DNA of 53,579 nucleotides, counting the filler, from Basidiobolus ranarum (Eukaryota): NCBI GenBank assembly GCA_040143965.1. It is 3 parts of 3 records of this genome, joined end to end, with 100 filler letters (N's around TTAATTAATTAA, not from the genome) between each part and the next. Parts side by side here need not be neighbours in the genome. Positions count along the whole stretch, not along the records: positions 35,813 to 53,579 come from JASJQH010000292.1; 2 more parts are not named here. One strand, given 5' to 3'. The stretch's first letter is position 1. The number at the start of each line of letters is the position of its first letter. A model generated the notes under the pieces. It saw only the letters and a list, made by a program, of their open reading frames with translations. It did no database searches and was not told the origin of the DNA. Of this stretch, positions 16,729-53,579 are shown piece by piece. Made by a program: the position numbers and the translations under genes.

Positions 16729-16758
16729 AAATACTAGCAGAAAATGAATTTTAGATTT

Positions 16759-29998: not shown

Positions 29999-30723
29999 AT
30001 GTTCCATATCCTTCGTCAAGTGAATACTCCTCTTACTTCTGTCCATAGGCTTAAGCCTTTAAACTTGATACGATATGCCTCAGTCTCACTCAGTAAAGGT
30101 GACAAGAAACTAGCGGAGAAAGACAGAAATAAAGTACTTGTTTATATGGGCCCAATCGCCACTACCATTCGTTCTTTCAAATTCTACGGTTTGATATTCA
30201 GTGGCTGTGGTCTTATTTCCATTCCTTTCCTGTTGAATGTAGGGGCTGAACCTTTGGCTGGTGCGGCTGGAGGTAAGTCAAATAGCTGATACTTCACTCA
30301 CAGCTACCTATACTAACCTGAATGATTACCACTATGATACCTGTAGCTTGCATCTCCGCACTTACACCTACAGTACTACTTCAATACCTTACTTGTAATT
30401 ATGTTACTAAACTTTCTGTTTGCAACCCACCTAGCAAACAGAAGCGTAAGCAAGGATATGAGGATAGTCAAATTCTCGCCATTGAGACTTTAGATTTCAT
30501 TGGAAGACCCAAAGAAGCCTTGATTCGTTTGGGAGATCTTAGAGATGATACACGTAAATTCCGGTTTATCTCATGGAAAAACATTGGCAAAGCTGGTCGT
30601 AAGAATTACTTCATCGAACGAGAAATCTTCAAAGGTGACCCTAACCTCTCCTTAATCATGCAAAAAATCGTGGCAAACTCACCCAAACCCAAAGAGAGCT
30701 CATGGTCGTTGTTCAACGTTTAG
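29999..30723 (+). CDS. TMEM70-like mitochondrial membrane protein (intron ~30273-30346)
   Basis: Basic presequence-like N-terminus; LVYMGPI..IRSFK, two TM segments, YVTKL, IETLDF, as in the TMEM70/186/223 family. Confidence 0.6.
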
Positions 30724-30984
30724 ATTCAAAGCATTGATTACATTCAACTAGACTTCCATAATAAATGTAGTCACAGTCACATTGCAAATACCACATATAG
30801 TTTAACATTAATGGATTTTATTAATAATGTGAAAGTGAGTTCTAATCGTGAAAGACATAAAATGGCAATAAACCCAAGCGCATAGACAATGTGAAATATC
30901 ACACCTTTATCAATATCATGGTATATACAGAATTTTGAATAAGGAAGTACTTATATCTCAAATATATGTGGAATATCAGTGTAT

Positions 30985-31421
30985 TTAAGCTATATTCACA
31001 TCCTTCACTTCCTTCTCAGTACGTTTTCCATTGTCGGTAGTCAAACCAGCAGCAGCCTCTGCTTCCTTTTGGTTGTATGGTTCCTCTTTCAAGAGCTTGA
31101 CACTATAAAAAGGATAAACTTAGAAGATAGTAAAAGGGAACATATCCATTGAAATAGTTACCGCTTCTTGTGAAGTTTGCCACGATAATGTTCGGATAGA
31201 GCACTACCGGAGATAAAATGGCGGGAGCATTGAATGCAAAAATGTTCACCAAGTCCAGGAAGTTCAGTGTCTCCCTTTTGACTTGCCAAGAGTTTCTCGG
31301 TATTCTCGGTCTTTAAATCCTCGTGAATCTGGTCGAGATCTTTAGTTCTTCTACGAGTACGATATTTTCGGGAAATATCACGAATTCCTCTGTGAGTACG
31401 TGAACGGCGAAGTCTACCCAT
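30985..31421 (-). CDS. BUD20: Bud20/ZNF593 C2H2 zinc finger ribosome export factor (intact, 2 coding exons)
   Basis: RRRTKDLDQIHEDL...LPGLGEHFCIQCSRHF...H.RGKLHKKR|VKLLKEEPYNQKEAEAAAG. Confidence 0.93.
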
Positions 31422-31837
31422 TCTGTTAAGAGAATATGTCAAGTGTAGAAAAGAAAGGCTGGCAGAAAACCAAGTAAAAGTAGTGAAATTAAAATTAGTA
31501 AAAAAAAGACATGAATCTTTTCTCCAATAGATAAGGTAATACAATATGAATTCATCCACATTCGATGCTAGTCCCTTTTTTTCTTTTTTTTTTCTCTTCC
31601 TGATTTACTCGTTTAGCACAGGAGTTGGAAGTTGTGGTAAACCAAGTTTTGCACATTTAATTAAGAATACTTGAAAATTTGCAAAAAAAGATCTCATTAA
31701 TCTACTCACTCAATGCTAACCATACGGATTGGCCAATCCTGAAGGTCTGAAAGTTATGCTAATTAAGGCCACTGATTTCCCACTGGTCTTTCTTCCTCTT
31801 CTAATTCCACCTCCCCCAAGTTGGAACGAAACTTAAA

Positions 31838-32356
31838 ATGGCACAACCAGTTCGGTAAGAATTTAATATCCTTTGACTTTTACTTGCATCCATCCAAGAG
31901 CGCTGTCGAATGAAACTGTAGAGTGACCTTTCATGTCTAACCACAACAGATGTTTTGTGATGTGTTGTCTGCAAATACGTTGGCAGTGACAAGGGTGGAC
32001 GTTAGTGATAGGACCACCAAACCAACCATATACTAATTTGCTTCACTAGTCTTTACTCCAAGGGTCGCGTCTTAGGATTCAAGCGCGCCAAGCGTAACCA
32101 AAGAGTCAACACTTCATTGGTTCAACTCGAGAATGTCGGTACCAAGGAAGAGGCTCAATTCTACCTCGGCAAGAGAGTCGCCTATATCTATCGTGCCAAG
32201 CGTGAGATCAACGGATCCAAGGTCCGTGTCATCTGGGGTCGTGTCACTCGTTCCCACGGAAACTCTGGTGTTGTCAAGGCCAAGTTCAGAACTAACTTGC
32301 CTGCTCACAGTTTCGGATCCTCTGTCCGTATTATGATGTATCCTTCCCGTGTTTAA
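31838..32356 (+). CDS. RPL33: 60S ribosomal protein eL33, copy 2; intron 31855-32049
   Basis: Matches copy 1 except AGT (Ser) at 32309 versus TGT (Cys) at 19230. Confidence 0.97.
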
Positions 32357-32701
32357 GTAACTAGGGAGAAACTACTTTAACTATTAGTAGTTTGGTCACG
32401 TCGGATGTATGAAGTCTCGTTTCACTTTCTAAATGTTGCATATTTCTTTCATTTGAGACAGTGAATAATTCGGGACATTGCATATCTTTAATCCTTGAAT
32501 GTCAATACCATGATTATTACATAATAAAGATGTCATTTAGATATGAGCTTTCAATACCCACTAGCCACTACCCATTACTGAAAATTTGGATATATGCTTA
32601 CTTACCTACTTCTTCGATCAAACACGAAACATTCCCCTCGCTTCTAGTCTAATTTACTACATTTTCTTCGATGAATGCAAGATGCTGATCTATGCACACC
32701 T

Positions 32702-32773
32702 TAGTCTGTTTAATGTTGAATAAGTTACATCATCTTCTAGTTTGTTTAATGTTGAATAAGTTGCATCATATTC
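32702..32773 (+). repeat. 36-bp imperfect tandem duplication
   Basis: TAGT(C/T)TGTTTAATGTTGAATAAGTT(A/G)CATCAT(C/A)TTC twice. Confidence 0.8.
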
Positions 32774-33824
32774 TATGTCTCATTACTGACGTTTCATATC
32801 TGTACAACAGAAGCTGGGGTCAGAGCTCCAACTATTGCGACTAGCTGCTTTTAGTGATTCCTGCTTAACCACATCTCCATTTAATAAGGATTCATCCAGT
32901 CCACAAAATGGGGATCTTTGCCATTTTATCACTGTACATGAGAATATATAAGAATCCCGACTTCAGGGGAAGATGGTGATGCAAACCAAGGTGCCCATGC
33001 GAAGAATTTATCATCATGCACTGTCCAACAGTCATTCGTCAATCATTCTTTGCTAATTTGCTGTGGATGAATGTCAAGGAGGGTGATACATTGTAAGGTT
33101 CCTGAGAAATGGCTGACCCATGACCTTTTGGTGCGAGCACTGAAGGGTCAACTACTCTTGTATGTAAAGTATCTGTTCGTTAATGATATCTTGATGGTTG
33201 TGGAAGATGCATAAAATCAAATACGAATAGTGATTTCAATGTTAAAGACACATGAACCATTATGTTGTACAGAGAGAGTAGCACACGGTTTAACCCCATC
33301 GTGCGATATGATATTGCAATAGTTAAACAGGTTGAAGAACAGATCAAGTAATTTCCGGGTAGAATGATAGCTAATGATCAAGTGGGCTCTTTATGGTTAA
33401 CTTCACCATTTCAGTATGCAGAATCAATGTCATGATGCTTCAGATTTGTTCTGGGTTTTTCAGGCATACATGTCATGCTTTCTGCATTATCCTTACTTGA
33501 AGATCCGCTTGGGAAATATAAAGTTCAACATTGCTGATTCACCTGACAATATTATTTCATCTGACATTATTATTTTGGCGTTTTTGGCATCTATTTCTTC
33601 TTTAGTCTCCTAGGCCTATTACCTTATTTGGATATCGGGTTTTCGCTTCTAGAAGTTCTATTGGATACAGGGCTAGGCATCTTGGTTCGTGATTTCTTTC
33701 TATATAACCCAACACAGTTCCCCAAATTATCTAGAATTTCTCTACTTTCCTTTTGTTTCATTTTCCATTTTCCATTTTCTTAATTTATGCTTCTTCACTC
33801 ATTTACATACTAATCAAATAACCA

Positions 33825-34511
33825 ATGCACATCAACACTAACCTACCATACTATGGAAGCGTCCCGTCACTTGAAGAGGACCTTGATTCCTCTACTGATT
33901 CTAATTCTTCTGTCCAAACTGACCACTCAACTTTTAAACCCAACTATGTTTCCTTCATTCCACCTGAATTTCTGTCTCCCAGACTAGAGAGAAAAAGAAC
34001 TCGATACTACCGTTGGCCTATGTTATTGATTCGTTGGTTGGTGCTAGCGACTAGTATCGGCTCCATTATATCCGTCTTTCATTTCATGGATAGATGTGGT
34101 GTAAATTCCACTACTTGTTGGTTGGCAATCTGTGGAGTTCTTTCGACAGTGGTCGCCATAATCTACTTAACTAATTGGGCACGACGTAGAATTTGTTACC
34201 AACCACCAGTTCTGCTTGATGCCTCAAAAGCTTTAGACTGTCCAATTAACGAGCGGATACCTCTATTACTGTGTCGACCTCATAGACATAGTCGGGCTGT
34301 GCTACATCTTTTGGTTCACTTGACTATATCTTTGTTCTGGGCTGGAGCTCTGCTAGATTTGTATCTTCGTCGGAACAGATGTTATGCTTTGAATGGATAC
34401 ATACAATGTGATGTGCTCTATATTTCGACAAGTCTGGTTATTTCATGCTTTGTTAGTTGGGTATTCGCCACTATTCTTATTATCCTTGATATTAAGCGTA
34501 GAGAGTTCTAA
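33825..34511 (+). CDS. Intronless 4-TM membrane protein (MARVEL-like topology), unknown function
   Basis: 228-aa ORF with four hydrophobic helices and Cys pairs in loops; TATA-like TATATAA and CT-rich region upstream. Confidence 0.7.
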   Translation: MHINTNLPYYGSVPSLEEDLDSSTDSNSSVQTDHSTFKPNYVSFIPPEFLSPRLERKRTRYYRWPMLLIRWLVLATSIGSIISVFHFMDRCGVNSTTCWLAICGVLSTVVAIIYLTNWARRRICYQPPVLLDASKALDCPINERIPLLLCRPHRHSRAVLHLLVHLTISLFWAGALLDLYLRRNRCYALNGYIQCDVLYISTSLVISCFVSWVFATILIILDIKRREF

Positions 34512-35712
34512 AAGGGCATCTAGTCGAGCCTCTCGTTGGTTTATTTATGCCAAGTTTCAAACCTGTTATTGGGTTGATTTTGATCTTTTCGCGATGTCAC
34601 ATTCACTTTCACTTTCACATCCCAGCACTGTACATACAATATGATATGTCGTAAATTGTATATATACATAACCCTCAGTTCTCTGATTCATTCTGTCAAA
34701 TATAAACGCATCACTTCCAAACCCTCACCCTTCATAGTACATAATAGTGTCATTAGTAGAACCATCGAAGCTATAATATTCTGTTGGAAAATGACATTGG
34801 AAACCAAGCCATCTAGAATAATATATCTATGGAAGTATGTCCCACAAAGATAATCAACTAGAAAGGTCCAATGATAGTAGAAGTAAATAGGTGATCATGG
34901 AGGATTGAGGGTTCCATGTACTACCACTGTCCATGCATCGACCAATTCTAGTGAAGTGATGGAATGGATGGAGGTTGTGGGTGGACCATGATGCCGAGTT
35001 CCAGGTGATACAAAGATCTTGGACCTTTTCGTCACCTTTAGATTGGCATAATTAAGAATGGTTGAAATATTCTTATCATTATTATCTTATCTAGATTAAT
35101 AAATCCCGATTTCACTCGTTTATTTATTGCTTTGTACATCCTTACTATTCAACTCACATTCATGCGGCACAAACACCTTCGCTGTCGATTAAGGAATACA
35201 ATTTCGATTGCCTGGGTATAGTCTAATTAATTTAACCTTGGCTTCAAATATATTAAATGGTGAACTTGTCATGGAAGTTCGATTTTACTCGGTGACATTT
35301 TGGTCAACCAACGTGGTAATATATTTTATTCTCCCATTAAACCTGGAATATACAACTTTTATTAATATAAACCGAATCTAACTAGTAAGGTAAACCCATC
35401 AGTTTGTATTCCAAAAGCTTGATCCTTTTCATCTCTTAGCTGGTGGAGTATGGTCATAAATTACCCAATCGAGTCTTCAGAGCTACCAATCATGGTTGAG
35501 ATCAAGTTTTTTAACCAAGGATATGCTCTTATTTTCTTTCAAGGTTTTTGATTCATTTTCTTGGGGTGGAAGGGTGTGGGCACCGGCGCACTCCTTGTAG
35601 GAGAAATCGATATTTTTAGCAATTTTTCGAGGATTATTCAAGAACGTGCTTTATGAACTCAAAATATTTCTAGACTGTTGGATAAACCATTTTATCACAC
35701 ACCTTTGTGCAT

Positions 35713-35812
35713 NNNNNNNNNNNNNNNNNNNNNNNNNNNNNNNNNNNNNNNNNNNNTTAATTAATTAANNNNNNNNNNNNNNNNNNNNNNNNNNNNNNNN
35801 NNNNNNNNNNNN
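35713..35812. other. Artificial contig linker
   Basis: N-run + TTAATTAATTAA + N-run, 100 nt. Confidence 0.97.
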
Positions 35813-36660
35813 GGAAAATCATTGAGAAATATCACAAAAAGCAGAGGACCTAGCTGCTTTTTGAGTGGTGAGCTTGCTGAGGAGATCTATATGGACCTGA
35901 TAGATGGATTTGTGGACCCAGAAAACCCTAAAAAAGTTTGCAGACTCCAGAAAACACTCTATGGCTTAAAACAATCTCTGAGAGCATAAAATTACAAAAT
36001 AGAAATTTTTTTGGAAACACTTAAATTCCAAAAGTGTAATGTTGACTATAATATCTACTTCAGGCCAGATAAGACAAACCCAGCTTTATTAGCCATGTAT
36101 GTAGATGACCTTATTATAGCAACCAAAGACTTGAAGACTTTGGAGAAAACAAATCCAGCTTATCAGCCAAATTCAAAATGACCAATCTGGGTGAACTGAC
36201 TTAATATCATGGAATCCAAGCTAAGACATATAGAACTACCTAACAATAACTTAAACCAGTCTAAGTATATCCTAGATATATTAAATAATTTTAAAATGGA
36301 AGAATGTAATCTAGTATCTATCCCAATGGATATAAATCCTAATTTGACTAAAATTGGCTCAAATCAGGTGCTCTTGGATTCAAATGAAAGCCAGAAATTT
36401 CTTGATCAATTTATGGTTGGTAGTTTGATGTATATCATGGTTGGAACATGGCCAGATATTGCATATTCTGTCGGAGTTATGTGGCAATATCTTCAAAATT
36501 CCTAATCTGATCAAATCATAGCAGTTAGGCAGATTTTTAGACATTTGAAAGGTACTGTGGATCTGTGCTTATGATACACATATTCTGGATCAAACTTTGA
36601 TCTGATGGGATAATCAGATGTAGTTCAAGGAAGAAATGTTGAAGACAGGAGATCTACAAC
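35813..36660 (+). mobile_element. Degenerate Copia reverse transcriptase to RNase H start
   Basis: AFLSGELAEEIYM, KVCRLQKTLYGLKQS, MYVDDL, VGSLMYIMVGTWPDIAYSV, EDRRSTT; stops and frameshifts. Confidence 0.92.
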
Positions 36661-37007
36661 TGTTGAAATAAGCATTGCCTAAACATCTCTATAGTCATAT
36701 ATAGCTTAGTACTCATTTATCTTATAACTCACTAACATATTATTCATTATTCTCAATTGGATTTACTTAAAATATTGACACTGACTTAGAAGATCTCAGA
36801 TATATAGATTTTTCAAACTTGTGCTAGAAGCCCCACACTTTGCACACATGTACCTGGGATCTTCCTTAACACATTCTACATGTTAGTTTGTTTACATCTT
36901 GACAACACTATAAATGTCAACTGAATACTCAATAAATCAATTAGCAAAAACTACCAATTTCTCCAATTCTCCTAACCACTTCCAACAGGCTCCCAAGTAC
37001 TTTAACA
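36661..37007 (+). mobile_element. Copia 5' LTR (347 bp) nested in the preceding element
   Basis: TGTTG...TTTAACA, homologous to 16759-17105; followed directly by PBS and gag. Confidence 0.9.
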
Positions 37008-37019
37008 AGTTATGAGCCC
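37008..37019 (+). other. Primer binding site of the internal tRNAiMet (anticodon arm) type
   Basis: AGTTATGAGCCC directly after the LTR resembles the GGTTATGGGCCC PBS of copia/Ty5-type elements. Confidence 0.7.
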
Positions 37020-37057
37020 CAAGCTTGCACTCTCTGTAATGTCTACTTCTCAAATTT

Positions 37058-37468
37058 ATGGAATTTTTCCTTCTTATGAAAAATTTGATCGAACCAATTA
37101 TTAAGTTTGGAAAATTAAAATGAAAATGCTGCTGCAAGAAAAAAGACTTTGGGACACTGTTGTAGGAGAAGAAAACAATGCAAAACTATCTGAAACCAAG
37201 GTTTTACTCCCAGCTAAAAAAGAACACAGAACCTTTAACACAATTTGCTTCAATGTTGAAGACAAATTGTTAATTCAATGTTCAAGAGTTAAAACTGCCA
37301 AGAAGGTATGGAAAGCCTTGGAAGACACCTATCAAGCAAGTTCTGCTGCTAACAAGATGTTTCTATGAAGACAATTCTTTAACTCAAAGATGAAGCCAGG
37401 AAAAGACATTAAATCACTAATTATTGGAGTGACTATTTTAGTGGATGAAATTGAATGCATTGGAGTAC
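37058..37468 (+). mobile_element. Degenerate Copia gag N-terminus
   Basis: EKFDRTNY*VWKIKMKMLLQEKRLWDTV...KTAKKVWKALEDTY...; stops; ends abruptly at the allantoicase sequence. Confidence 0.85.
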
Positions 37469-37870
37469 CTACCTTCCAATATCATCTTACCCACTCGTGG
37501 TGAAAATATGGGTGATGGCTGGGAAACCAAGCGTTCTCGTACCCCTGGTCACGTTGATTACGTAATTATTAAACTTGGTGCTCCTGGTCGTGTTCATGAA
37601 GCCATTTTCGATACTCTCCATTTCCGTGGAAACTTCCCCCACCAAGCCTCTTTGGAGGCTTGCTATTCGGAACAGGAGAACCCATTGAATAATCCTGCTG
37701 CTCAATCCGATGATTTCTGGACTACCATCTCCCCCAAACAAAAGACTGCCGCTGATACCGAGCACAAATGGGATTTAACACCCAAGGACAAGGTCTTCAC
37801 CCATGTTCGCGCCACTATCTACCCTGATGGTGGTTTCAAGCGTCTCCGTGTGTTTGGTTATAGAGCCTAA
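37469..37870 (+). pseudogene. DAL2: Allantoicase C-terminal repeat only (5' half missing), fused to Copia gag
   Basis: PSNIILPTRGENMGDGWETKRSR..GHVDYVIIKLGAPG..DTLHFRGNFP..IYPDGGFKRLRVFG; upstream sequence is gag, not the first allantoicase repeat. Confidence 0.85.
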
Positions 37871-38345
37871 ATATTACACATTTGCATTAACATACCTGTA
37901 TTTTCCCATCTCTAATAAATATTCAAGCATTTGAAAATGTACACCCAAAGTGTTTGCAACCCTCAGTTAATTCTTTCCGAATATACCATGCTCGTTAGAG
38001 TAAAGCATAATAATTTATCACTGTGCTAAAGCTACCAGAAAGGCTGATTTGAGCATTCGTCGGTACAATTCAATCGGAATTATACGGAGCAATATCCATT
38101 AAATCTAGCGTATAATAAGTTCCACAAATTGATTCGAATTTTGGTTATATTTAATCCACTCAATGGTTCATCTTAAGATAACCGAGTCAAAGCTCATCTA
38201 TATTTAGCAAAGAAAAAAGGAAAAAAAAAGGTTTCTCCTAAATTGAAAGAATTATACATGTCAGAATATACTCGTAACTAAAATTCCTGGAGAAAACTTC
38301 CGTTTATCATTTTCAACCACTTACCTTAATTTATTCATTAATTGG

Positions 38346-40193
38346 ATGTCAAGTTCCAAATTCCTCTCTTTTTTACGTCTTTCAAGAGTTTCACTCTACG
38401 AAACAACCAGACAATATGGAATTATGGCAAGAGCCAAACGTAGAGCTGGCATGTCTTTGGAAAATACCATACAAAAAAGCCTGGAAAATGAGGTGGAGCC
38501 AATTTTAAAGAAAGTTGAGGAGAATATTCAAGCTGAGACAAAAAATGTAGTACCAATAAATAATATTGGGACTTCGGAGAAACCTACTAAAATCCCAAGA
38601 ACTCCCAGAGAAATCCTTGATTTTACTGAAACCAAAAAAGCAACCTCTACTGAACACATTCCTGCTGCTCAAACTATCACACAGCCAAAGCCTACAACGA
38701 AAAAGGGGAAAAATGTCCCAAGCAAACCTTACAGACCACCACCTCTTGTATCAAGAACTGGCCAAGTGATTATTACACAACCGGGTATTGATATCAATTT
38801 GGATATACTCTTACTTCGAACAGCTAGTAACCTTTTCAAACAATAGATATGAGAGTAAAACTTCCTCAAGTTTACGAAAATATTGAGCAGCCACCAAATC
38901 CTCACCTACTTCGTGTCGCTATCATTGGGGCGGCCAACGCAGGTAAATCCACCATGGTTAACCAGCTTGTTGGTGATGAGGTCAGTCCTTTTACCATTTC
39001 TCTTTCACGATAATGGTTAATAATGATTTGAATATTTGTAGATATCAATTGTCTCCGAAAGACCCCAAACAACTCGTGAACGTATCCTTGGTGTTATGAC
39101 CGAAGAGAATACACAGATTGTAAGCAATAGAGCGTGTGCCAATTATCTATGTAATTATTATTAACTTTATCCACGGTTAGGTATTTTTGGATACACCTGG
39201 TGTTATCCCAAATAAGAATAGATTAAGGTAAGATATATATTTTTACAGAATCACCACAAGAAGTGGATGTTAACGTGATAAATGGTATAGACTAGTTCGT
39301 GAAATTGTAAGTGCTCCTTGGCACACTATCAATGAAGCTGAGCATTGTAAGTGATTTTCTTCTCGCCAAAAAAGCATTCTTGATAACATTCTAATCTGAC
39401 TCTCTCTTATCATAGTGTTGATTTTGATCGACGGGCCTGAAGCTGTTAAGCGTTTCTCCGTTGCAGAAACATATTTATTTGAGCGATTAAAAGATATCAA
39501 CGTCCCAGCTACACTTGTATTAAACAAAGTAAGTTTGTCAGATTTTTTAAATGAAGCTCATATCCACATAGCTCAAATACTAACCACCCCTATCACTAGA
39601 TGGATCTCGTTGAAGATAAAGATATGGTTACACTTCTCACTGAACACTATCAAAAGCAGTATGGCAATATCATGCGAACTATCTATACCTCAGCCTTACA
39701 CAACGTTGGGGTATCTGACGTCAAGGTAGATTTAGGTGCCTCGATCATAGCAAGAGATATACTAATATGACTTTCTTAGGAGTGGCTGATGACCTTAGCA
39801 AAGCCTAATAACTGGGTGTACCCCAAACAGCAAAAGGGAGAAATGTCGGATTTAAAGCGCGTAGAGGAATTGATCAGAGCGGAGTTCTTTTCACGTTTGC
39901 ATTCATACTTGCCCTATACCATTCGCCAGGAAAATACTGGTTGGACTAATATACCCAGTGGTGCCCTCCGAATTGATCAGAACATCATTGTCGACAAGCC
40001 TAGTCAAGAGGTAAGTCTTATATTAGATGCACAAGGGAGTATGTAGGCACTAATAGGATTATTTGCATAGAAAATCATTGTCGGAGCACAAGGAAAGATT
40101 ATCAAAGAAGTGACCGCGGCTGCCACTGGTCGCATTGCCCGAGTTTTAAAAAGACCGGTCCATTTATATTTAAAAGTTAAAACCAAGAAATAA
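38346..40193 (+). CDS. Mitochondrial Era-like GTPase (ERAL1) with KH domain, multi-exon
   Basis: G1 GAANAGKS, G2 PQTTR, G3 DTPG, G4 NKV|D, C-terminal KIIVGAQG..PVHLYLKVK; presequence-like N-terminus. Confidence 0.9.
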
Positions 40194-40949
40194 TCACCAT
40201 CATTCACATTGCATACTTTTCAAATAGATAGAATTAACCAACTCCATATTTTGTAATTTTCTTTACATTGATTACACGAATAATCTCCCGTCTAATTTAC
40301 ACGTTTGTAATTTTAGAACAATTTGTTGAGGGGCCTTTTATTAACTTTTAGAATCACTTTGAAACTGAATCTTTTTCAAGTAAATATATCTTACTTCAGC
40401 TTGATCTTTTGTAAGAGATACATGATGGATTTGGAATACGTCGAATTTCATTGATGAACATTATTATGAACTCTCATAAATTATTGAGATTTACCAAATC
40501 GCCTTGAAAGGGTCCAGCTCGGGGTCCAATGAGATTTTTAAACATTGCGAACCAAGTCTCATTTTTTGGTCAAAATCGCTTTCCCAATCTATCGCTTCCT
40601 ACAGTATTAAGAAGAGGGCGCTTGAGTACTTGGTTAGTCTATGAAGAAATTTTTACAAGGATATCTCTAAAGTCTTATTTGTGGCCGGAAATTTGGGTGG
40701 TTTGGAATACACATCAGATGCAGTTGAGTGTAGATGTGATGAGGGTTAAAATCCCTCCAAGAATGCGTATATAGCAGGGTGAAGGTGAATAATAAAGGGA
40801 AAACTTATGATAGCGAAAATTGGTGTATCCTTATTGATCTTTAGGTAGAATGTTATGACGGAAGAGTTGGCGATTATGGTAGCTCATTAGTGGCATAAGA
40901 AGCAGCCAAGATTGTAGGAGTGAGTGATAAATAAGATTGACGTTTCTAG

Positions 40950-41645
40950 TTAAAGAGCGTCGTTACATTCGGTAACTTCTCTGATATTTGATCCTTTGGG
41001 TCCAGGTTCTACTAATGTAGTGTCCATTATTTGTTTATAACATGGATGCTGATCGACTAAATTCGTGTAATACTGCTGTAGAGTTTCTGGAGAGCAGTAT
41101 AACCTCCAATTGATAAAAAATAGGAACTCTAGTTCCAGAGCATTGATCTCTTGGGTAGTTATACCTCCCACCTTGGCATAGTGTGTATTCGTACAATAAG
41201 CATCGCATAGGTTCTTGGAAGCGGCTACTATCGCCGTTATGAGAAATCGATGAACGGTTAAGGAGGAAATGACGAAACTTCTGTGTAGTTCACTTATACG
41301 ATCGATGTATACAATTAACATGATAAGACACGGTTTTTCGACAGATGCGTACCTTACAATACGTTTTAAATATTCATAAACAGATATGGCAGGTGGTGTA
41401 CGGGAATGAAATCTAGTTAGATTACTGGGTGTCAACGGAATCTGGTCGTTGTGGGCAATTAGACGATTAAACATGTCCGCTTGATAAAAAAAATAGAATC
41501 AGTTTCCATTGAAAATGAGAACTAAAATAGAAAAGCTACTCCTTGATTTACCTATCAAATGTGTCAAATGACCAGTATCAGCTAGATAAAATGCCTTAGG
41601 AACCTCTATGGTTGTAGCGGCAGTAACAGACAGTGTGCTACTCAT
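40950..41645 (-). CDS. PHO80/PCL-family cyclin (PREG-like), 2 exons
   Basis: LTRFHSRTPPAISVYEYLKRI...VYIDRI...LTVHRFLITAIVAASK..D...NTHYAKVGGI...INALELEFL. Confidence 0.9.
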
Positions 41646-43931
41646 ACAAGCTGCAGATTTGGGTATAGTAGTAGGAATTAGGATAGTTTGTAGAATCGCC
41701 AGGCAAACTTTTAATGACGTATGAAAAACAATGGGGAATACTATGAAAGTGCGACGGAGAGGAATGCTCAATTGATAGGAGTCTGCTAATCAATGTCTAG
41801 TTTTGTGAAATAGCTAAAGGCATGTAACTAACACCTGGTAAGCCATTACTTTTATTTCTTTAATAAAACTATCCAAAACTTTCCTAGAAGGTATATATAT
41901 ATATATACACACGAACTAAAAAATAGGGAATGCAAAAATTGCCAAAAAAAGTCGAAGTGTTTTAGAAGGACAGAGTGCGAAATCAGCGAAAACTATTGGG
42001 TAGGATGAAAGTATAAATTCATTTTGAAGTGTAATTAAAAGACATACACTTCGCCTTATAGTAACAGGTGACAATATAGGTAACAGTAAAAGGATAAACG
42101 GAACTACGATTCTTCACTAGCAGATAGTTGAAAAAACCCTTTCCTTTCTGAGATACTATTTTATTTATTCCGCAACCCCTTCTGCTCAACGGAAGATGCC
42201 TTGGGCAAGCGTAGATCAAGACGATGGTTGTTTAACGAGCTCAAAATAAGGCATTCTATGCAAGTGGATAAACTAGAGCTAGGCATTCCTCGATCACAAT
42301 TAATGAGCCTGACTCTACTGTTGTTGATTTTTCGGATGAAAGACCTACACGGCTCATACGTCATTCAAAATGCACTCATTATAGTGAATTTAGAATTGCG
42401 CCACATTCAATCGCCCTTTCTTATTTGATCATGTTTGGTATTTATTTATGCGTATTTTGGGAAAATCAGTGTTCTAATTTCAAATCGCTCTCAGGGTAAC
42501 TTTGTTGATAAGCAGTGATCCAAATTCCTGTTAAGAAACTAGCTTTATCAATCAAAATATATGCAAGCAAAGTGATCCGCTGGAAGAGGAGAGCCATTGG
42601 TGTATTTGTGTCTGATACTCTCTTTTCAATAGGTTTGCAGATTTATTTACTTTCGTATTTGCACCGCATTGTATCCTTGAAAGTAGATTTTGTCCAGGTA
42701 GGTGGCACTTTTATTTCCACTTTCTGAGCTATTCTCCTCTCTATTACCGATATCCAGCTACATATTGATTGAGCAAGCGAACTGCTATTTATCACTCAAC
42801 CTAGTGTCGATAAAACAAACAGCTCGCGGGAAGAGCAAAATTGATAAATATTGAATACCACATATTGTTTACACAATGATATGCCACCCATTCAAAAGTG
42901 ACGTTCCTAACATTCGATTTCTTTGCATATTAATCAGAAACAACTTAGTCACACCATTGTCAACAATCATGTATGTTGCATTCAACTATCCCAGCCACAG
43001 CTTATCTAACAGCTTTTCTTCATTGCTAACAGTGGAAAGAATTCTCTAGACCTATTGGAACTTGTGGCGACCAATAAATACTACCTGCTTCAACACACGG
43101 GTCCGACACCCCTGTAGCCGCACTTATAGTTTCTGTACAATAAACTCATAATTACTGAATACGATAGATATCAATCTCGTAATTGTTGAATTGTCACTAG
43201 TGGATCCATACTGATAATGCCTGCACCGCTTCAGAAGTGTTCTGGCTAACAAATGTTGGTGGACTGACACTCATATGACTTATTGGCCTCTTGTAGAATA
43301 AGCCAAGTGGATCTTCATCTCCCCCGCAGTGAGGTCACCTGAACTACATATGGGTTGGCGCAGGCCATTGTTCCATCGCATCCAAGCCATACATGTGAGT
43401 CAATTTGAATACGTGGTAAATTGTACCAGAGAGTATTAGGGACTGATTATCACAAAGATAAAAGGACATTTGTAAAGTGAGACATAATGAAGAGCCATTG
43501 CTCCAAGATGGAAATCAGCCAAGTCATCAATGTTCAGGAATGCATATTAGTTGATCTGGACTGTTGCCGATATTACTTGTCAAAAGAGCTATCCAATGAA
43601 CTATCCCTGATGATCCAAACATTTTAGGAATAATAATTTCTTCTTATTGGGCGAAGTGACTGTCTTCATATTTAACAAAGCTTAGCTATATCAAATTGAA
43701 ATGGTATTGTTCTTCCTTTTATAACTCCGTGTTTATATCCCCAAGTTTATGCTTCAACTGGTGGAGTAATTTTCATTTTTTTAATCATTGTTATTTTACC
43801 CGTTTTAGGCCGGCTGTGTTAATTGTATTTCACTGTAGCTGCAGGTTCATTATTGCAGTCTAACCTTTTATTAGTCGAAGGCTGCGTGAGCCCTCCTCCT
43901 TTATCTACCTTCAGAGCACATAAACGCCTAC

Positions 43932-45594
43932 ATGCCCGAACCCATAGTTGGCAAGGTCACTGAGATTGGACTGCCCAAACCTTCTGTTACTTTTTACAAG
44001 CAAGAAGATACTCCACTAGTCCTTACTCTGACCTCTATTGACAAGGCTAAAAGAGAACTTGTATATCGTATCAAGGCTAAAGTAAGTTTACCTGTCTACA
44101 ATAAGCTTCCAGCCCTAAGTTTATTTATTTAAAGTATGTCTTTCTGCCTACAATGCTTAACAATATTTATTTCAAAATCAAGACCAATCTATCGCAATAC
44201 CGAAAAAAAAATTACGATGCTGTTGAAAGAACCTACGGTGAATTTGAAAGGTTACATACCTACCTCCTGAACGCGTATCCTGAATGTATTATTCCTATGC
44301 TTCCTCGTCAACCAGACGAGTGTGGTAGTCCTGATAAAAATTTACGGCTGATCAAGAATGCTCTTCAAAATTTCCTCGGCAGGTTAGCTGCTCATCCAAT
44401 TTTGTGTCAGGATTCTGAACTCCAATCTTTCATAGAAACAGATTTTGTAGTATGTATCCTCTCTGTGAGTACACGACCGTATACTTGTACTGACGGTTTA
44501 TTCCCATTTATAGTACAAACCGACCAGTAGAGTCAATCCGATCAAAGTTAATCGTTTTCGAACGAAAGTCAAGGATACATCTAATGGGGAAAAGGATCCC
44601 TTAGATTCTGAGTATACAGCATTAGTTGCACTTGAGAATAACTTGCAGAATTCATCGAAGATATTGACAAAATTAAGTAGAACTCGCAAAAGTAATGGCA
44701 TCTTATTTGTACAGAAATTTCATCGGAAAGTAATACTGAATATTGGATGTTATCAACGGTTCTTTTATATAGATTGGAGCAATTCAGAAGTGGAAATTGC
44801 CAGTAAGTTGACTTCGTTTGCTGCATCAGAAGTGACCAGTCCTATGTCTAGGTATAGCTCTCACAATTATACACAAATTCGACTATGAAAGTTATTCACT
44901 TTGATCTTTTCAGACCGCTACGTAGGTTGGGCGAATATTTCTCCAAATCCAGTGAGCTAAACGTGGTGCAGGCATGTTACCATCAGCGTCAAATATGCAA
45001 TTTTGAATACGAATTCCTAAAGCAGATATTGCTCTATATAGACGGATCACCAAAGTGCTCTTTTGGGGTTCTTTTTTGACAATTACATTAAGAATGCTAA
45101 ATATATACAGGTAAATAATAACTCATCATTTACCGTTCTAAAGACTGCGATTGACTCTATTTGCGTAGCTACTGCTTCTTAATCGAATCAATGTAAAAGC
45201 TGAATATGATACTTCCGTAAAAACATCGGAAAAGAGACGACAGGCTATTGTAGTGATGAAAGCCTCCGGAAGCATCAAAACAGAGAAAGTAAATCAAGCA
45301 GTGGAGGATCTAGAAGAGGTAAGCATGTCTCTTGCAACTCTTTACATTTAATTTCACAGCATTAATCATGCATATCTCCATATTATGATGAGATAGGCTA
45401 AGCAATTCGAAACATATAAGCGAGCATTGCATAATAAGATTGACAAGAATTTAAGGAGTGAAATTGAGATTTACGAAACAACCAAAGTATATGATTTTTT
45501 GAGTTGCTTCAACACATACGCACGTAAACAACTGGAAATAGAAAAACAGAAACTCCAATTGTGGGAGAGCATGTTAAACGAATTGACTCAATGA
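43932..45594 (+). CDS. VPS17: Retromer PX-BAR sorting nexin, Vps17-like, multi-exon
   Basis: IKAKTNLSQYRKKNYDAVERTYGEFERLH..L..AYPECIIPMLP (Vps17 PX-like); BAR region ending IKTEKVNQAVEDLEEAK. Confidence 0.75.
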
Positions 45595-46709
45595 TGTAAA
45601 GACGGCGCTGGAGAAACCTTTGCATCATGCATTATTGGGTACATTGTTCAAGTTGATTTATGGGTGTACTTTCATTTAGATACACAAAAGACAAAGATTG
45701 ATTTGTATCGTTTCTTCTTTTCACCTTTACCTCAGCCCTATGATATTTTCACTTTAGTATGGGCACCAATTCATCCCTGTATTTGTCTGTAGAAAGTATT
45801 AGATGAAATTTATCAACAATGGTACTAAGAAAGACCATTAGAGCTCTAGTGTTCCCTATTCCTGTTCCAATAATATATATCTGCCAATTGAATGAATCAT
45901 GGATTTTTCATCGTGTATCCCATTTTATTATCCATTTCAACAGATCCCAAACAAAACATGTCTAGGTCAATCTATAGGACACAGTACACACTCGTGTGGA
46001 GATCAACCATGTTTTATATGCCTGTACAAACTAAAGATTTATGAAGGAATCTGCACATGTGAAATCAACGAAGGGCTTATTACTATGTGAGTATATAGAC
46101 AGGGACATGTATTTTTGTGGCGTAGGATGAGCAAAATCAATATATTTGGCTTCCTACATCGAAGAGTGTTTATTCCGACTAGGCCTTGGCAGTATAGATG
46201 AGGGCAAACCAGTCGATTTTTCACCACCAAACAGGTGAGTTTCTCGCGAAGTATAGCAACAAATATCTGTTTACGTTGTAAAAGACGGTTGATCAAAAGT
46301 CTACGAGTGCACATAGTCACAGCAGCATCAGCCTGTTAGTACAAAAGTCATTACATATCGTAAATGCTACTATTTATTTCCCGATCTTATTCACCCATTA
46401 AATATCCATCTTTCTCCAAGTATCCTTTGACATTTGTATGTAAAGCATTTACAAACATCTACTCAACTAGAAAAAATCACTTGACACTATATACTTGGCC
46501 CGGCTCGGATCGCTCACAAATTTCTGTAATGAATATATACTAAGCTTGATTAAAGATGTTAAACTTAAATCTGATTTTATACTAAGAAACTGGAATCCCG
46601 ATAGCTGAAACAGTCATTGTATTGAAATGATTTTTTTTACAATAAATTTGCTTTTTCTATTTTTGTGAAGGATGGTAATCTATGCTTTTTGTGTACTTGC
46701 TGCCAGATA

Positions 46710-49037
46710 ATGTTCTTATTACGTCCTGGACACTGGAAGTCAATAACAAGAAATATTCCATTGTCAAATAGTCGTCTGTTTACTGTTAGTTTATACAACA
46801 GCTATAGTACCAATAATACTCGCATGCCGTGCGAAAAGTCCAAATCACAAACTCGTTTAACTAGTGCTCCTTACACTTCTGCGAGTAGACGTACTATGAA
46901 TTCTCCAAAGAGTTATGGGGTAAACAAAAATACCGGACACATAATGAAGATCAATTTGAATCAAAAAGAGAGAGAAATCTGCGACCTTTTACATGACGTT
47001 GCTTTGAACATAAAAAAAACTGATCCAAATCTTCCTTCTGTTGAATTAAGAGTAGCCGGTGGCTGGGTCCGAGATAAAGTTGGTTTTTTGTTTTCACTGA
47101 GTACTTTTTTTTAGCTTCATTTCATGCTCACTAATATCCTGGTTCTAGTTATTAGGCTTGGAGAGTCATGATTTGGATATCGCTATCAACAGCATGCTTG
47201 GTTACGAGTTTGCGCTTCATGTGAATCAATACTTGAAGCAGAAGGGGTATACCTCGAAACATGTAACCAAGATTGCCTCAAATCCTGACAAATCAAAACA
47301 TTTAGAAACAGCAACATCTATGGTATTTGGAATGTCACTTGATTTTGTAAATTTAAGAGGTGAAGTGCGAGATGAAAGTACGAACAATCTTGAAGTTGTA
47401 AGTTGTCAAACTTGTGTTGAGCTCAGGTTGGCTATCTAACTGTTATTTCATTTGTATAGTCTTTTGGGACCCCTGCACAAGATGCTTTTCATCGCGATAT
47501 CACCATCAATGCACTTTTTTACAATATACTACACAAGAAGTTGAGGACTTTACGAACATGGTAAGTTTGAGTATTTATAATGAATCATCATTAAAGCTAA
47601 CTTCTGATAATTATTGTAACATAGGGAGTTGCCGATCTAGGCGAAGGATTGATTCGTACACCACTTCCGGCCATTGAAACTTTTAGCGATGATCCTTTAA
47701 GAGTGCTCAGATGTATTCGGTTTGCCAGTAATTTTGACTTTGAAATAGTAGATGATGTTAAACAAGCCATCTCTCAACCGGAAATCATGGTAAATTTATC
47801 ACTAAAACTATAGTCCATTCGATCCAACGAACCTAACCACAAATTTTATTAACAAGGCCAATCTAAGCAACAATATCAGTAGAGAACGAATCGGTGTTGA
47901 GTTGGACAAAATACTTCGAGGTAGGCTAGTTTGCGATTGAGATGAATTTCTTGGAAAGCTACTGATTTTCTCGACACTTGCTGAACATAGGCCCAAACCC
48001 TTTGAAAGGCTTGGGACTTATTCACGGATTAAACTTGTATAATGTTGTGTTTATCAAACCACAAAACGATGCTGTGGATTCCATTCAGAATACCTCCGTT
48101 GGACTGGAATTGTCAAAAACGATCAATTGGTATGTTATAATTTGGTAGTGTTGGAATGTATGTTATGTATTGAATGTCTTATCATCCACGGACCAGGTTG
48201 ATTCATAAACGCCATATTGCTGAGGTTATCCCCAACTCGACAGAAGAAATGAGATGGCTTTATCTTGCATCTAATCTTGTACCATATAAAGATATGGTTT
48301 ATCAAGAGAAAAAAAAGCAACTTCCCATTGTTCATTATATCATCAGAGAAGGATTGAAGGTAAGCAACAAAGTTGAATTTCCACAATGCTCAAATCTTAT
48401 TACACTTGACTTACTGCTACCCTCAGTCCTCCAATGTGGATATAGATACTACATGCAAGCTTCTCAACTCTTTAAACACTCTCCGTGAAGCGGTTAAGAA
48501 CAATCATGCTGCATCATTAGACAGACCTACGCTAGGGATGTTGATCCGAGAGATCGGAAGCAAATGGAAACTTGCGATTATGTTTTCTTTGGCCAATGAT
48601 ATTCTTCCGTTTACTGAAAAATGCAACGAAATTGAACAGAGTTAGTAGTTTCGCTTTATTGATTGCCATTCACTTTGGATGGTTTTATTTACATTTCATC
48701 AACTCAAGATGAGGATATGCAGCAAGTTATCGAAAAATACCGGGAGTTTGTTGCGCAGGTTCATGAATTTGGCATTGAGGAGTGTTACTCTTGGAAATAT
48801 ATTGTGGATGTAAGTTAATGTTGATAATCCAAGCTAGAGAATTTCTCTTTCTAATATCTAATTGCCATGTCGAAATTGTAGGGAAAGAAAGTCGCTACGT
48901 TACTAGGAATTAAGCCAGGCCCGCAGATCAAGGATACACTCGAGAAAGTTATGTATTGGCAGTTGGGACATCCAGAGGGCACTCCAGAGCAATGCATTGA
49001 ATTTGTCCAAGATTTAGCATCCAAATCTAAGCAGTAA
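46710..49037 (+). CDS. CCA1: Class II tRNA nucleotidyltransferase (CCA1-like); apparent 1-nt frameshift at ~47529, may be a pseudogene
   Basis: RVAGGWVRDKLLG..SHDLDIA, NPDKSKHLETA, DFVNLR, DDPLRVLRCIRFAS, ISRERIGVELDK, IKPGP; in-frame ATGs at 46710/46824/46896/46944. Confidence 0.85.
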
Positions 49038-50080
49038 TCCGAGAAATCATGGGAATCGCTGGAATAGCATCATGGAACTACCGTTTATCGTTTTAAACAT
49101 GAGACTAATCTCCAAAATAGAAAATATTTGATTTAGTAAATATTCATGAGCCAAGTCATTTGATTTTAAGAATAACTTATGAAGGGCATGTGATCAGTGG
49201 GTAGTGTGCACTTTATCCGAATGAGGTAATATCTCGTGGTAGTGAATTATGACTCATCAAATAGGGAGTAAGATTCCAGTTTGAGAGGATCAGTTGAGTA
49301 TGTAGTACACAGACAAGCCGAGGTTTTAGAATTGGGCTTTGAACTCGTTTGTTTCGAATTAGACATTCATTAGAATATGAGTGCGCTTATATGCCTGAAG
49401 TAAAACAGTGAAATGACTCTTTCTGATGGCGATGTGTAATAGTTAATGCTGGCACGATCAGATGATTGGATTGATATTGAAGAATTCATATATTAGGTCG
49501 AGGCCCGTTTTGATGCCAAATCTTTATAAAAACATCGCAATAACGATACTCTGTAACAATATGGATGTTTTTCGAACGTAAGGTATATGTATTCGTAAGT
49601 AACGGAGAAACATGTTAGATTGATATGATGATCCATTTGGTACTTCGCCTTCGGTATCGGTATCCGTCGGTATGAATTCACTCGGCAACTGGGTAGAAAA
49701 CATCCTTTATGCTTACTCTCGCTACTAAATTAATTTCATTACCAGTTTTCAAACCAGTTTCACTTTGAGGTGTACAGGAGACGACTTGAGAAATTAAACG
49801 AGCGAGTGTTTTTTTCACTCGTACTGTTCTCTCACCTGGATTCTAAACCCTTATATTATATTTAACATTCTTTAACCCCTCCCGCTTTTATTTTGTAGTT
49901 GTATTCTGCCTTAATATATTCATATATATCTCTATCCCTTGTACTCATACGCTCTGAAGAGTAAACGTACTTCCGTGTACGATTTGCTTTTACCTACCTT
50001 GTTCAGCTTATCCTCTTGGCTTTTCTAAGCAGTAGACCGACTAACTTGGTTATATAATTATATGTCAAGTTAATAAAGCA

Positions 50081-50293
50081 ATGTTTTCTTCAGCCATTGT
50101 TGACAACAATATTCAAGTAATGGGCATATCTACTAAGCCGGAATCGGAAGAACTTGATGACCCAATGGAGTTAGATGAAGAGAACTCCATACCAGTCATA
50201 CCGGAATATGCGCTTCGGCGGAGAGGAGCACTCGCTGTAGTAGACCAGTCAGTACAAGCTTTCTTAGCTACTCGAATACCTAGTGGCAATTGA
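50081..50293 (+). CDS. 70-aa acidic small protein with RRRGAL motif
   Basis: ATG in AAAGCAATG context, CT-rich/TATA-like upstream region, possible 5'UTR intron (~49961-50032), protein-like composition. Confidence 0.5.
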   Translation: MFSSAIVDNNIQVMGISTKPESEELDDPMELDEENSIPVIPEYALRRRGALAVVDQSVQAFLATRIPSGN

Positions 50294-51832
50294 GTCAGTC
50301 ACACTTTCTTGTTACGATATCAAATTTCCCAATTTCTGTATATTATCTTCTTATTCATAAAGAAACTTCCGATTTACACTTTCCTGGATAACTTCCAAGC
50401 AAAGATTTCAGAGGTTTCTTGGGAATCCTGGAAATAAGGACACTTCAACACCCCCCTTTCTTTCCAGTTTAGTGAGTGAAAGGTCTTACATCTTCCCAGT
50501 GAAGTTTATTCGACAATAATTGACCGTCCAGCAATATCATCAAATGCGTACCATTTGAGCTATAATGCATGCTCTTCACTAATATGGGGAATCCTATTTA
50601 TATACCATCATTAATTTGGCTAGGTATTAATCGAACAATAAAAAACTGTATATGCGAAATCCTCCCTTTTCAAGATTACCTAAGTGGAAATGGTAATTGA
50701 GTGGTGATGATAATGCTTCTTATATCTCAGAACATTGTTGCTGATTTTAACTAAATTTGTCAATTATGTAAACAGAGCTTCAAGAAAGTTGATACCCAAT
50801 GGCCCCATTCACACCAAAATATCCATTTAATTGGAGTAAGTGTTGGTTCTGTGTTCATCCATTACGCAATGAAAAGCCGCTTATCTAATTTGCGACCACT
50901 TGTCAAGTGTCACTGCAATTATCAGATGCACAGAGTAGAAGGTACAAGGAACCCAGAAGTCAATAGACATGCGATTGTACAACTATAATCCTCCTACAAT
51001 CCAGTAGCATATTCAGTAGTACTATGGCAGGCTATGCATGAACTATACCATAAATTGATAGCACTGTGCACCAAAGAAAAAATAGGAACTTAGTTAAGTG
51101 CAGATACTTGCTGCACAAAGAGTATACAGTGGGGGGAGAGGGAACCATCATTAGGAAAAACGAATGAACGTCTCCAATAACTTGGCTAGCGATCTAGGAA
51201 TATTATTTCCGAGATTGCTTGACACTATGTCACCATTCAACCCCATTAGACGTAGGCTGGATTTCTTCGTATGGATGTTCGACAGTTCGTGGAGGCCAGA
51301 TTATTTTTTCAATCACAGTTGATGCCAGAAAAAGGGGACCAAGTACAAGTTTGGGAAACTCTGGATGGTTTCTTGGCAGCGACCAGGTTGAACAATCCTG
51401 CATGTTTTAAGAACTTTCCTAAGAATCATCAGTCCTAGCCTATGATCATCACATTTGCCTATTTCGACTCATAATTTCGTCATGTCGTAATAGGTTGATT
51501 TCCCAAATGTTTCTAAAGTGGTCGATTTCATCTTAGAAGTAGGGTTTGGGATCTCAGTATATAATACTTACTCCAAGGTTCCACCAGCCAAAGCCAGGGA
51601 GGCTATTAGGGATTACATCGCATCTATGGAAATTAAGCACCATCAAAAGTGAAACAGCACTTGCTGTATTACCCCATGGCCTTTTGGGTCCATCCGAGAA
51701 CAGCAACTTGGCAGACGTTTTTATACCCAAGTGCTACAGATATTTAGTTATATAAACTAGGTGCAATAGCTCATCCTTTCAGAAACGTCCTCATAACTAC
51801 TTCCACTTTCATACAAAGTCAATCAATTAACA

Positions 51833-52696
51833 ATGGCTAGTGCATCAGTTCTCAACGCTGTTCTCATTCACGAATTTCCCCACGTGTTAGAACCAGATGT
51901 CCACCAAGAACTTCCCCCATTAACTAAACACGAGTCTGACTGCTTTACTGATCCTTCAGCCAAAATTGCCGATTATGCTCGTACCGTTAAATTCCCTAGT
52001 AAAGCTGAATTTCGTGAAATTTTAGCCGATCGTGAACAAACCAATGAACTATACCAAAGTATCTTGGACACCCGTAAGACTCTCAACGAACTTACTGAAG
52101 AATATGAGAATACTCGTTCCCAAACTATCGGTCATCTTCCTGAAAATTGGACCGTGCGTATTTCTCCATATTTCGAGAGAGCTCACCAGATGGCTCTCCA
52201 TAGATTTCACTCACCACAGTCATCTTATTTCTTGCCCAATAGTGATGATGACATTGTGGCTATAATCAGACAGTGGAATATATTTCCTGAATCCATTTGG
52301 AACTACTCACATGGCAGTGAACTAATACTTGCATGGATCAAGACTACCTATGAACTTGAACGTGCTGCTGTACGCAATAAAGTCCTTGGAATCCGAATGA
52401 GTGTTCGTAAGAATCGTAAACTAGATGGAAAAAGTCTGAGCCAAGAGTTACTTCTCTCCGCCAACCACCCTGTTACACTCCAAGCGATCAAAAAGACAGT
52501 TTTACTACGTGATCTTGCTAAAAGATCAGGTGCCTGGGAAGGGATTAAAACTTTCGATAACAACCAGAAAGAGCAAAAATTCTGGGGAGACTACGTTCAA
52601 GAGTTGCGTACACTTCGCGATATGTCACTTCACCAGGCTGAAGCCCACCTTACAAAGATGATAAAAGATGATCAGAATAGCCATGGAAAGTTTTAG
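51833..52696 (+). CDS. Intronless hypothetical protein, 287 aa
   Basis: Long ORF with ACAATG start and host-like codon usage (CGT, GAA, CTT); helical; no family recognised with certainty. Confidence 0.75.
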   Translation: MASASVLNAVLIHEFPHVLEPDVHQELPPLTKHESDCFTDPSAKIADYARTVKFPSKAEFREILADREQTNELYQSILDTRKTLNELTEEYENTRSQTIGHLPENWTVRISPYFERAHQMALHRFHSPQSSYFLPNSDDDIVAIIRQWNIFPESIWNYSHGSELILAWIKTTYELERAAVRNKVLGIRMSVRKNRKLDGKSLSQELLLSANHPVTLQAIKKTVLLRDLAKRSGAWEGIKTFDNNQKEQKFWGDYVQELRTLRDMSLHQAEAHLTKMIKDDQNSHGKF

Positions 52697-53579
52697 AAAG
52701 AATAGGTTCAAATGAACCATTCCTGATATAAATATAGCGATTTCTGAATTTTATGAACTAAAAGTTATATTTCAAGTATTTAATTATGAGCAATGAAATA
52801 TGTATCCGTATCTACAACCAATGTATATTTAATTGATTGAAGTAAATTTATTAAAAACCTTCTGCACAGTGACTATATTTCTAATCTGTGGATGCGACTA
52901 TCATTCAGACTTTATGAGCTGCAGTATTTAATAAGAGCCTTGAAGCTCTACATATGATCCCAAGTTCATACATGATGGTTACCAATTTGTGAATCGAAAA
53001 TCGATGCAGGAATATCATTTAATATATATTGTGACCCTGGCTACCATTAGATATCTGTATACCAGATCTAGATATAATTATTATAATTTCCAAATACAGC
53101 ACAGCATGTGATACAATCCTGGAATTTTAGTTACCATGAAAATGACCTGGCACGCTGACAATATGCAAATTTTATGATTCAAGCTCAACCTGATAGTGAA
53201 AATTTGGAATCGAACTAAATCGACTCTTTATTATTAGTATTAGGCTGCTTAGTGACAATAGTACTCTTTGTTGAACAACCCTTATAATATGCATGCAAGG
53301 TGGTTTTTGAAGGATTCTTTGAAATACATCGTAACACTCGAGGGTAAATGCTCGCTATTTGGGTTCCTTGTTAGTTTTTATATAAGATCGATTGCTTATG
53401 TTAAACCAAGTTCATTTTTCCAAATTGTTTTGACTGTCTTTTTAACTATACCATCGCTACAGTAACGTTACTTGAGCGATTATATATGGATTAGTTATCT
53501 CCTTGGGGGAATTTACTGTATTTAAATTCTAGTGATTTGCTAGAGATTTATTGATAATTGACTGATTCTTAGAGATATG

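Follow-up and report, generated by a model that had tools for sequence, protein, structure and literature searches.

A conserved microprotein of Basidiobolus ranarum with a candidate PKA pseudosubstrate motif

Introduction

Does a 70-aa ORF in the genome of the fungus Basidiobolus ranarum encode a small endogenous inhibitor of PKA? The question arises from a short motif, LRRRGAL, which a preliminary description of the locus read as a PKA pseudosubstrate within a PKI-like microprotein of an early-diverging fungus. In fungi, the cAMP-binding regulatory subunit is to our knowledge the only known restraint on PKA, and no description of a fungal PKI-like protein was found in the literature searched. 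The attribution of the host is correct: B. ranarum is a zoopagomycote, and the Nop14 protein encoded in the window, i.e., the whole stretch of 53,579 nucleotides that was analysed, matches a protein recorded under the name B. ranarum at 100% identity. The window consists of three pieces (1-17828, 17929-35712, and 35813-53579), which are separate contigs. The linkers between them, at 17829-17928 and 35713-35812, are artificial and are each composed of TTAATTAATTAA with 44 N on either side; gene order across the linkers is thus meaningless.

The ORF and its genomic setting

The coding sequence of the microprotein, named P0001, occupies 50081..50293 on the plus strand, stop codon included, and lies in the third piece, which spans 17,767 nt. 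It runs from the ATG at 50081 to the TGA at 50291-50293 and encodes 70 aa; the frame is marked out by two full-length homologues (P0002 and P0003) and by the codon log-odds. Because an in-frame TAA is read from the sequence at 50042-50044 on the plus strand, the frame cannot begin before the ATG at 50081. With G at -3 and T at +4, this ATG has an adequate but unremarkable context, which tempers the earlier wording of a good start context. The upstream DNA described earlier as promoter-like comes down to a TATATAA at 50051-50057 on the plus strand, 24-30 nt before the ATG, a putative core-promoter element judged from its sequence only, and a 3-codon out-of-frame mini-ORF is situated upstream at 50062-50073. 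Neither Rfam families nor repeats overlap the microprotein locus.

The codon-usage log-odds were highest in the frame of P0001 (+8.6 bits), with values from +2.5 to -13.3 in the other five frames, and P0001 ranked 15th of the 82 ATG ORFs of 50-120 aa, which gives mild support for it being coding. The ORF stands alone. The CCA-adding-enzyme gene upstream has its own C-terminal exon, which ends near 49037, so that P0001 is not an exon of that gene, and the next long ORF downstream begins at 51833. P0001 is a single-exon gene of Basidiobolus ranarum, and we consider it highly probable that it is a real protein-coding gene. The other genes around it, encoding a PX/Vps5 sorting nexin, a Pho80-like cyclin, and an allantoicase, as well as a copia gag fragment, give no more hint of function than the CCA-adding enzyme and the 287-aa ORF that flank it, and no kinase-like ORF is present within the window.

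The CCA-adding enzyme (tRNA nucleotidyltransferase) gene is multi-exon and spans 46626-49037 on the plus strand; it was recognized by a weak Pfam match to the PolyA_pol head domain (E = 0.0083), and the rest, the C-terminal exon included, was followed by eye in the translated frames. The 287-aa ORF, at 51833-52696 on the plus strand and 1.5 kb downstream of P0001, is uninterrupted and matches no Pfam family at E<=0.1.

Homologues and distribution

A word-indexed search of 5.8 billion proteins yielded three proteins among three candidates, and an exhaustive phmmer search of 1.84 billion representatives gave two matches, P0003 and P0004. P0002, labelled Basidiobolus meristosporus, has 71 aa and is 72.9% identical to P0001. 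P0003, labelled B. ranarum, also has 71 aa and is 60.0% identical to P0001 and 57.7% identical to P0002. Since it carries the B. ranarum label and an accession from the series neighbouring that of the window's Nop14, P0003 is most simply a paralogue from the same annotated assembly, probably a within-species paralogue of P0001 that arose before B. meristosporus diverged.

We did not accept P0004 as a relative. In this vinculin-family protein an acidic stretch matches at only ~24 bits per repeat, and the residues aligned with the motif are IRGRSA, not RRxA; its E-value of 7.5e-11 is misleading because the weak matches of the repeats are summed. The protein itself, 836 aa in length, repeats a segment of 68 residues about eight times in tandem with hardly any change and looks like an assembly or annotation artefact.

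The Nop14 gene (19657-22407, plus strand), which appears as two long exons with ORFs of 282 aa and 620 aa, served as a divergence baseline for this pair of genomes. Its product is 77% identical to the B. meristosporus protein; with 73% between P0001 and its orthologue in the same two species, the microprotein is nearly as conserved as Nop14.

Beyond these three sequences, a profile search for longer or fused forms scored 8000 candidates and found none at E<=10, and the 146 pattern matches in the JGI metagenomes included none that could be confirmed as a relative. Searches of the ESM Atlas with the whole protein and with residues 30-70 gave no usable feature match, and the structure matches were single-helix look-alikes only. 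No Pfam family matched P0001 at E<=10, or P0002 and P0003 at E<=0.01. Among PDB sequences, a set that includes PKI peptide chains of 20 residues or more, there were no matches with the profile (E<=10) and none with the 27-aa stretch around the motif. As far as these databases show, the family appears restricted to the genus Basidiobolus within the protein and metagenome collections searched, and a spread over Zoopagomycota, Mucoromycota, and chytrids, in whose genomes a search for the conserved core had been suggested, is not what we find. A disordered protein of 70 aa could have diverged past detection.

Sequence conservation

The positions of the start and the stop and the length are common to P0001, P0002, and P0003 in their alignment (A1). 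The replacements among the three copies, at 58-73% identity, are conservative (L/I/M, D/E, and S/T), and 37 of the 71 columns are invariant and fall in clusters, the alignment holding three sequences in all, so that "invariant" carries limited weight here and below. The first cluster is an N-terminal patch (50081..50110, plus strand), in which M1, S3, S4, A5, I6, N9, and N10 are invariant. An acidic block, D26-E34 or DDPMELDEE (50156..50182, plus strand), follows with seven of its nine columns invariant.

The most constrained part of the protein is the block P38-A50, PVIPEYALRRRGA (50192..50230, plus strand), where all 13 columns are identical in 3/3 sequences. The next residue after PVIPEYALRRRGA is L, I, or M in the three sequences. 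This 13-column run is the longest invariant run of the three-sequence alignment, and only 0.2% of 200,000 shuffles reach that length (P = 0.002). In the C-terminal part, 9 of the 20 columns are invariant.

Predicted structure

P0001 has a net charge of -7 and a pLDDT of 0.41 in the ESM Atlas model. AlphaFold2, run on the three-sequence alignment, gave a mean pLDDT of 60.1, with values of about 63-72 for the blocks covering residues 41-60, and placed helices only at residues 42-48 and 50-65. The protein is thus predicted to be mostly disordered, and the initial picture of a stand-alone, acidic, disorder-prone ORF of 70 aa, together with its exact coordinates, is borne out. The second helix, at residues 50-65 (50228..50275, plus strand), is predicted to be amphipathic, and V54, D55, S57, Q59, F61, A63, T64, and R65 within it are invariant in the alignment.

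The LRRRGAL motif

The candidate pseudosubstrate core, LRRRGAL, is encoded at 50213..50233 on the plus strand, exactly where it had been reported, and corresponds to residues L45-L51. In substrate numbering, R47 occupies P-3, R48 P-2, A50 the P-site, and L51 P+1. An RRxA-hydrophobic sequence is present in 3/3 sequences, with the cores RRGAL, RRGAI, and RRGAM; A50, R47, R48, and also R46 at P-4 are invariant among the three, and P+1 varies among L, I, and M only. The RRx[ST]-hydrophobic pattern of an ordinary substrate occurs in 0/3. Both of the tests set beforehand on the homologues, that they keep the motif and that Ser or Thr does not stand at the Ala position, thus came out in its favour (3/3 and 0/3, respectively).

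The caution that so short a motif can arise by chance was well placed. RRxA[LIVMF] appeared in 0.46% of shuffles of P0001, and the window's ORFs of at least 60 aa in all six frames, 18,681 residues in total, contain it three times; the RRxA-hydrophobic motif alone is weak evidence of function. What lifts it above chance is its location inside the longest invariant run and the most constrained block of the protein.

Passages of a study on Smoothened (SMO) list the hallmarks of a PKA-C pseudosubstrate (bioRxiv 10.1101/2021.07.05.451193). In the core these are Ala at P, arginines at P-2 and P-3, and hydrophobicity at P+1. Outside it they are a bulky aromatic side chain, located at P-11 in PKI and at P-13 in SMO, and a helix that precedes the motif, and in function ATP/Mg-dependent binding of PKA-C together with its inhibition. 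P0001 and its homologues possess the whole core, namely, the invariant A50 (3/3), the invariant R48 and R47, and L, I, or M at P+1. The flanking hallmarks are absent from the three sequences. P-11 is V39, P-13 is I/T/T, and the sole aromatic residue near the motif is Y43 at P-7; P-6 is Ala44, so that the lack of Phe at P-11 and of Arg at P-6, pointed out in the preliminary description, is real. The model helix at residues 42-48 spans P-8 to P-2 only, and the prolines at positions 38 and 41 exclude a PKI-like N-terminal helix. An invariant Pro-containing segment, PVIPEY, is located directly upstream of the core.

Comparison with known PKA inhibitors

Our comparison with PKI, the type I regulatory subunit (RI), and SMO is one of short motifs printed in papers. 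Animal PKIs are described in passages of PMC7723848 as heat-stable proteins of 70-75 aa, mostly coil, in which residues 1-25 contain the inhibition domain and residues 37-46 form a leucine-rich nuclear export signal. The microprotein resembles them in size (70-71 aa), in being largely unstructured, and in a core that combines the P-3 and P-2 arginines with Ala at P and a hydrophobic P+1 residue. In the proposed mechanism it would likewise be independent of cAMP. The differences are substantial. P0001 shows no detectable sequence relationship to PKI in Pfam or the PDB and is known from one fungal genus, and its motif is situated in the C-terminal half, at residues 45-51 of 70, instead of within residues 1-25. 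The caveat about missing determinants therefore extends further than the two side chains first noted, to the N-terminal amphipathic helix, a conserved export signal, and the N-terminal position of the motif. A classical NES pattern was present in two of the three sequences, at non-homologous N-terminal places, and in 0/3 after the motif in the C-terminal half. Membership of P0001 in the PKI family was rejected on these grounds (0 Pfam families, 0 PDB matches, motif position, and no conserved NES), and it is at most a functional analogue of PKI.

The inhibitor site of RI has the core RRRGA followed by an aliphatic residue. P0001 shares this RRRGA-aliphatic core, which reads RRRGAI in the B. meristosporus copy, and has a Pro-containing segment a few residues upstream; a Pro-rich auxiliary motif of PRKAR1A is mentioned in passages of PMC13622983. 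Unlike RI, P0001, with 70 aa and no Pfam family, possesses neither a docking/dimerisation domain nor the two cyclic-nucleotide-binding domains, and for want of the latter cAMP could not release it.

In the SMO study, the passages concerned give the core of the PKI motif as RRGAI and report that the SMO peptide binds PKA-C at about 0.8 uM, a modest affinity attained without the full set of PKI determinants, and that the Trp at P-13 and a predicted N-terminal helix are both needed for binding (bioRxiv 10.1101/2021.07.05.451193). The likeness to SMO, whose motif is located in the C-tail of the vertebrate/insect receptor, is an RRGAI-type candidate decoy in an otherwise unrelated protein, which would be a case of convergence, and the RRGAI core of the B. 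meristosporus copy equals that printed for the SMO peptide. P0001, however, has neither Trp at P-13 nor a helix N-terminal to the motif, and it is a soluble microprotein, whereas SMO is a membrane receptor.

The viral protein BNLF2b of EBV carries RRNAL and an adjacent Pro-rich motif, both needed, and was found experimentally to bind and inhibit PKA, according to passages of PMC13622983. It resembles P0001 in being a microprotein with a conserved RRxAL-type decoy motif, an adjacent Pro-containing segment, and a disordered context. The two share no sequence relationship, and BNLF2b targets the kinase of a host, whereas the putative activity of the fungal protein would regulate the kinase of its own cell. 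SMO and BNLF2b show that functional analogues of PKI can originate independently.

Proposed mechanism and alternative explanations

We propose that the functional core of P0001 would be a short linear motif that mimics the substrate of an Arg-Arg-x-Ser/Thr-directed kinase. R47 and R48 at P-3 and P-2, together with the hydrophobic P+1 residue, would occupy the cleft in which the PKA catalytic subunit, when free, binds its substrates, and Ala50, which is non-phosphorylatable, would stand at the phospho-acceptor position and accept no phosphate. P0001 would then act as a competitive decoy inhibitor, independent of cAMP, and the PVIPEY segment and the C-terminal amphipathic helix might add affinity or bind a second partner. 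So understood, P0001 would be a convergent functional analogue of animal PKI, the RI inhibitor site, the Smoothened PKI motif, and EBV BNLF2b. R-R-x-S/T is the motif assigned to PKA/PKG in passages of PMC6611643, and PKA is the best single kinase candidate. The analysis establishes the gene, its conservation, and the invariance of the motif, and we infer that a kinase is bound, which kinase it is, and that it is inhibited.

This mechanism appears to be the best single explanation of the data, on the basis of three sequences and a five-residue motif, and we give it a probability of roughly one in three (about 0.35). That P0001 is a decoy of some basophilic kinase, whichever it may be, has about an even chance. 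The original proposal of a small endogenous PKA inhibitor thus survives in part: homologues exist, and they keep the motif with Ala at the acceptor position. Against it, P0001 does not belong to the PKI family, was found in Basidiobolus only, lacks the high-affinity determinants, and fits the consensus of another basophilic kinase as well. Two further observations also speak against a PKA decoy. A pseudosubstrate bound to PKA is extended around the P-site, as seen in PKA-PKI structures, but the AlphaFold2 helix of P0001 starts at residue 50, i.e., at the P-site itself. Moreover, L45 (P-5) and V54 (P+4) are invariant too, and neither is a requirement of PKA.

An alternative, which we likewise rate at roughly one in three, is that P0001 serves as a conserved adaptor of disordered structure and that a partner other than a kinase binds its invariant block, the RRxA-hydrophobic sequence being coincidental. 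The motif is short and common, as its occurrences in the window illustrate, and conservation is far from limited to it: PVIPEY, the acidic block, the N-terminal patch, and the C-terminal columns are conserved as well, which suggests several interaction modules. The basic patch and the amphipathic helix could lie on an acidic protein surface or on nucleic acid, or IPEY could be an LPxY-like ligand of a WW domain, but IPEY is not a canonical PPxY or LPxY sequence. A degron is a further candidate, and a loose D-box pattern does match P0001, but P0001 alone; the Leu of the D-box is Ile or Met in the other two sequences. We rejected an APC/C destruction box, the loose R-x-x-L pattern being present in 1/3 sequences and the strict pattern in 0/3. 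KEN, RVxF, PxIxIT, PIP, monopartite NLS, and RxRxxA patterns are likewise found in 0/3 each, and no alternative partner has positive evidence in its favour.

It is less probable, and in our judgement rather improbable, that P0001 is a pseudosubstrate or decoy for another basophilic Ser/Thr kinase, i.e., Snf1/AMPK, a CaMK-group kinase, or Aurora/Ipl1, instead of PKA. The AMPK/Snf1/CaMKI-type consensus has a hydrophobic residue at P-5, a basic residue at P-3 or P-4, and a hydrophobic residue at P+4. With a non-phosphorylatable P-site, this pattern, hydrophobic-x-R-x-x-A-x-x-x-hydrophobic (L45 ... A50 ... V54), is present in 3/3 sequences. Recognition by PKA alone fails to explain why L45 and V54 stay constant when P+1 to P+3 do not, but their constancy may equally reflect helix packing or another contact. 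Arg at P-3 plus P-2, in turn, is the signature of PKA/PKG. The motif of CAMK2 is given as R-x-x-S/T-x-D/E in passages of PMC6611643, but P+2 is Ala, Ala, and Ser in the three sequences, which do not show the D/E preference. Least likely is the absence of a functional protein, the ORF being a product of chance or a young gene-like sequence to which related genomes were given parallel annotations: it is very short, confined to a single genus, and moderate in codon log-odds, but its ends, length, and clustered invariance are kept through conservative replacements in three copies, its divergence is similar to that of Nop14, and B. ranarum has kept a probable paralogue.

Implications of a possible PKA decoy

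The fuller proposition is that a PKI arose independently in Basidiobolus, as a soluble microprotein that would clamp free PKA-C irrespective of cAMP through an RI-like RRRGA-aliphatic core, aided by a Pro-rich segment and a C-terminal helix; this we regard as unlikely on balance. If true, P0001 would have no described precedent in fungi as an endogenous, stand-alone PKA inhibitor and would mark the third independent origin of the device, after animal PKI and viral BNLF2b. It would place a cAMP-independent layer on the pathway that controls how fungi grow in form, respond to stress, and develop, and it would mean that disordered microproteins have come upon the PKI solution time and again by way of short motifs, for which Smoothened and BNLF2b are the precedents. 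Should the mechanism be confirmed, P0001 would represent a new convergent variant of a known device; should the PKA decoy fail, the gene would remain a conserved, genus-specific microprotein.

Additional observations

A motif-pattern search of metagenome contigs identified 115 loci of PKA-type genes. One of them (L057) is an intron-free fungal-type PKA-C ORF, P0005, of 354 aa, with the Pfam family Pkinase. In the PDB it is most similar to yeast TPK1 (1FOT, E = 2.9e-173) and next to catalytic subunits of mammalian PKA, and it was aligned with 18 others (A2).

In the third piece of the window, a gag fragment of a copia-type LTR retrotransposon at 37105-37365 on the plus strand (Pfam Retrotran_gag_2, E = 9.6e-13) adjoins the allantoicase exon at 37442-37867. 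The middle contig contains an exact direct repeat of 300 nt at 18040-18339 and 31119-31418, with 100% identity between copies located 13,079 nt apart; it results either from recent duplication or from an error of assembly. On the minus strand of both copies, an ORF of 87 aa encodes a dsRNA-binding C2H2 zinc finger of the JAZ type (Pfam E = 4.3e-07).
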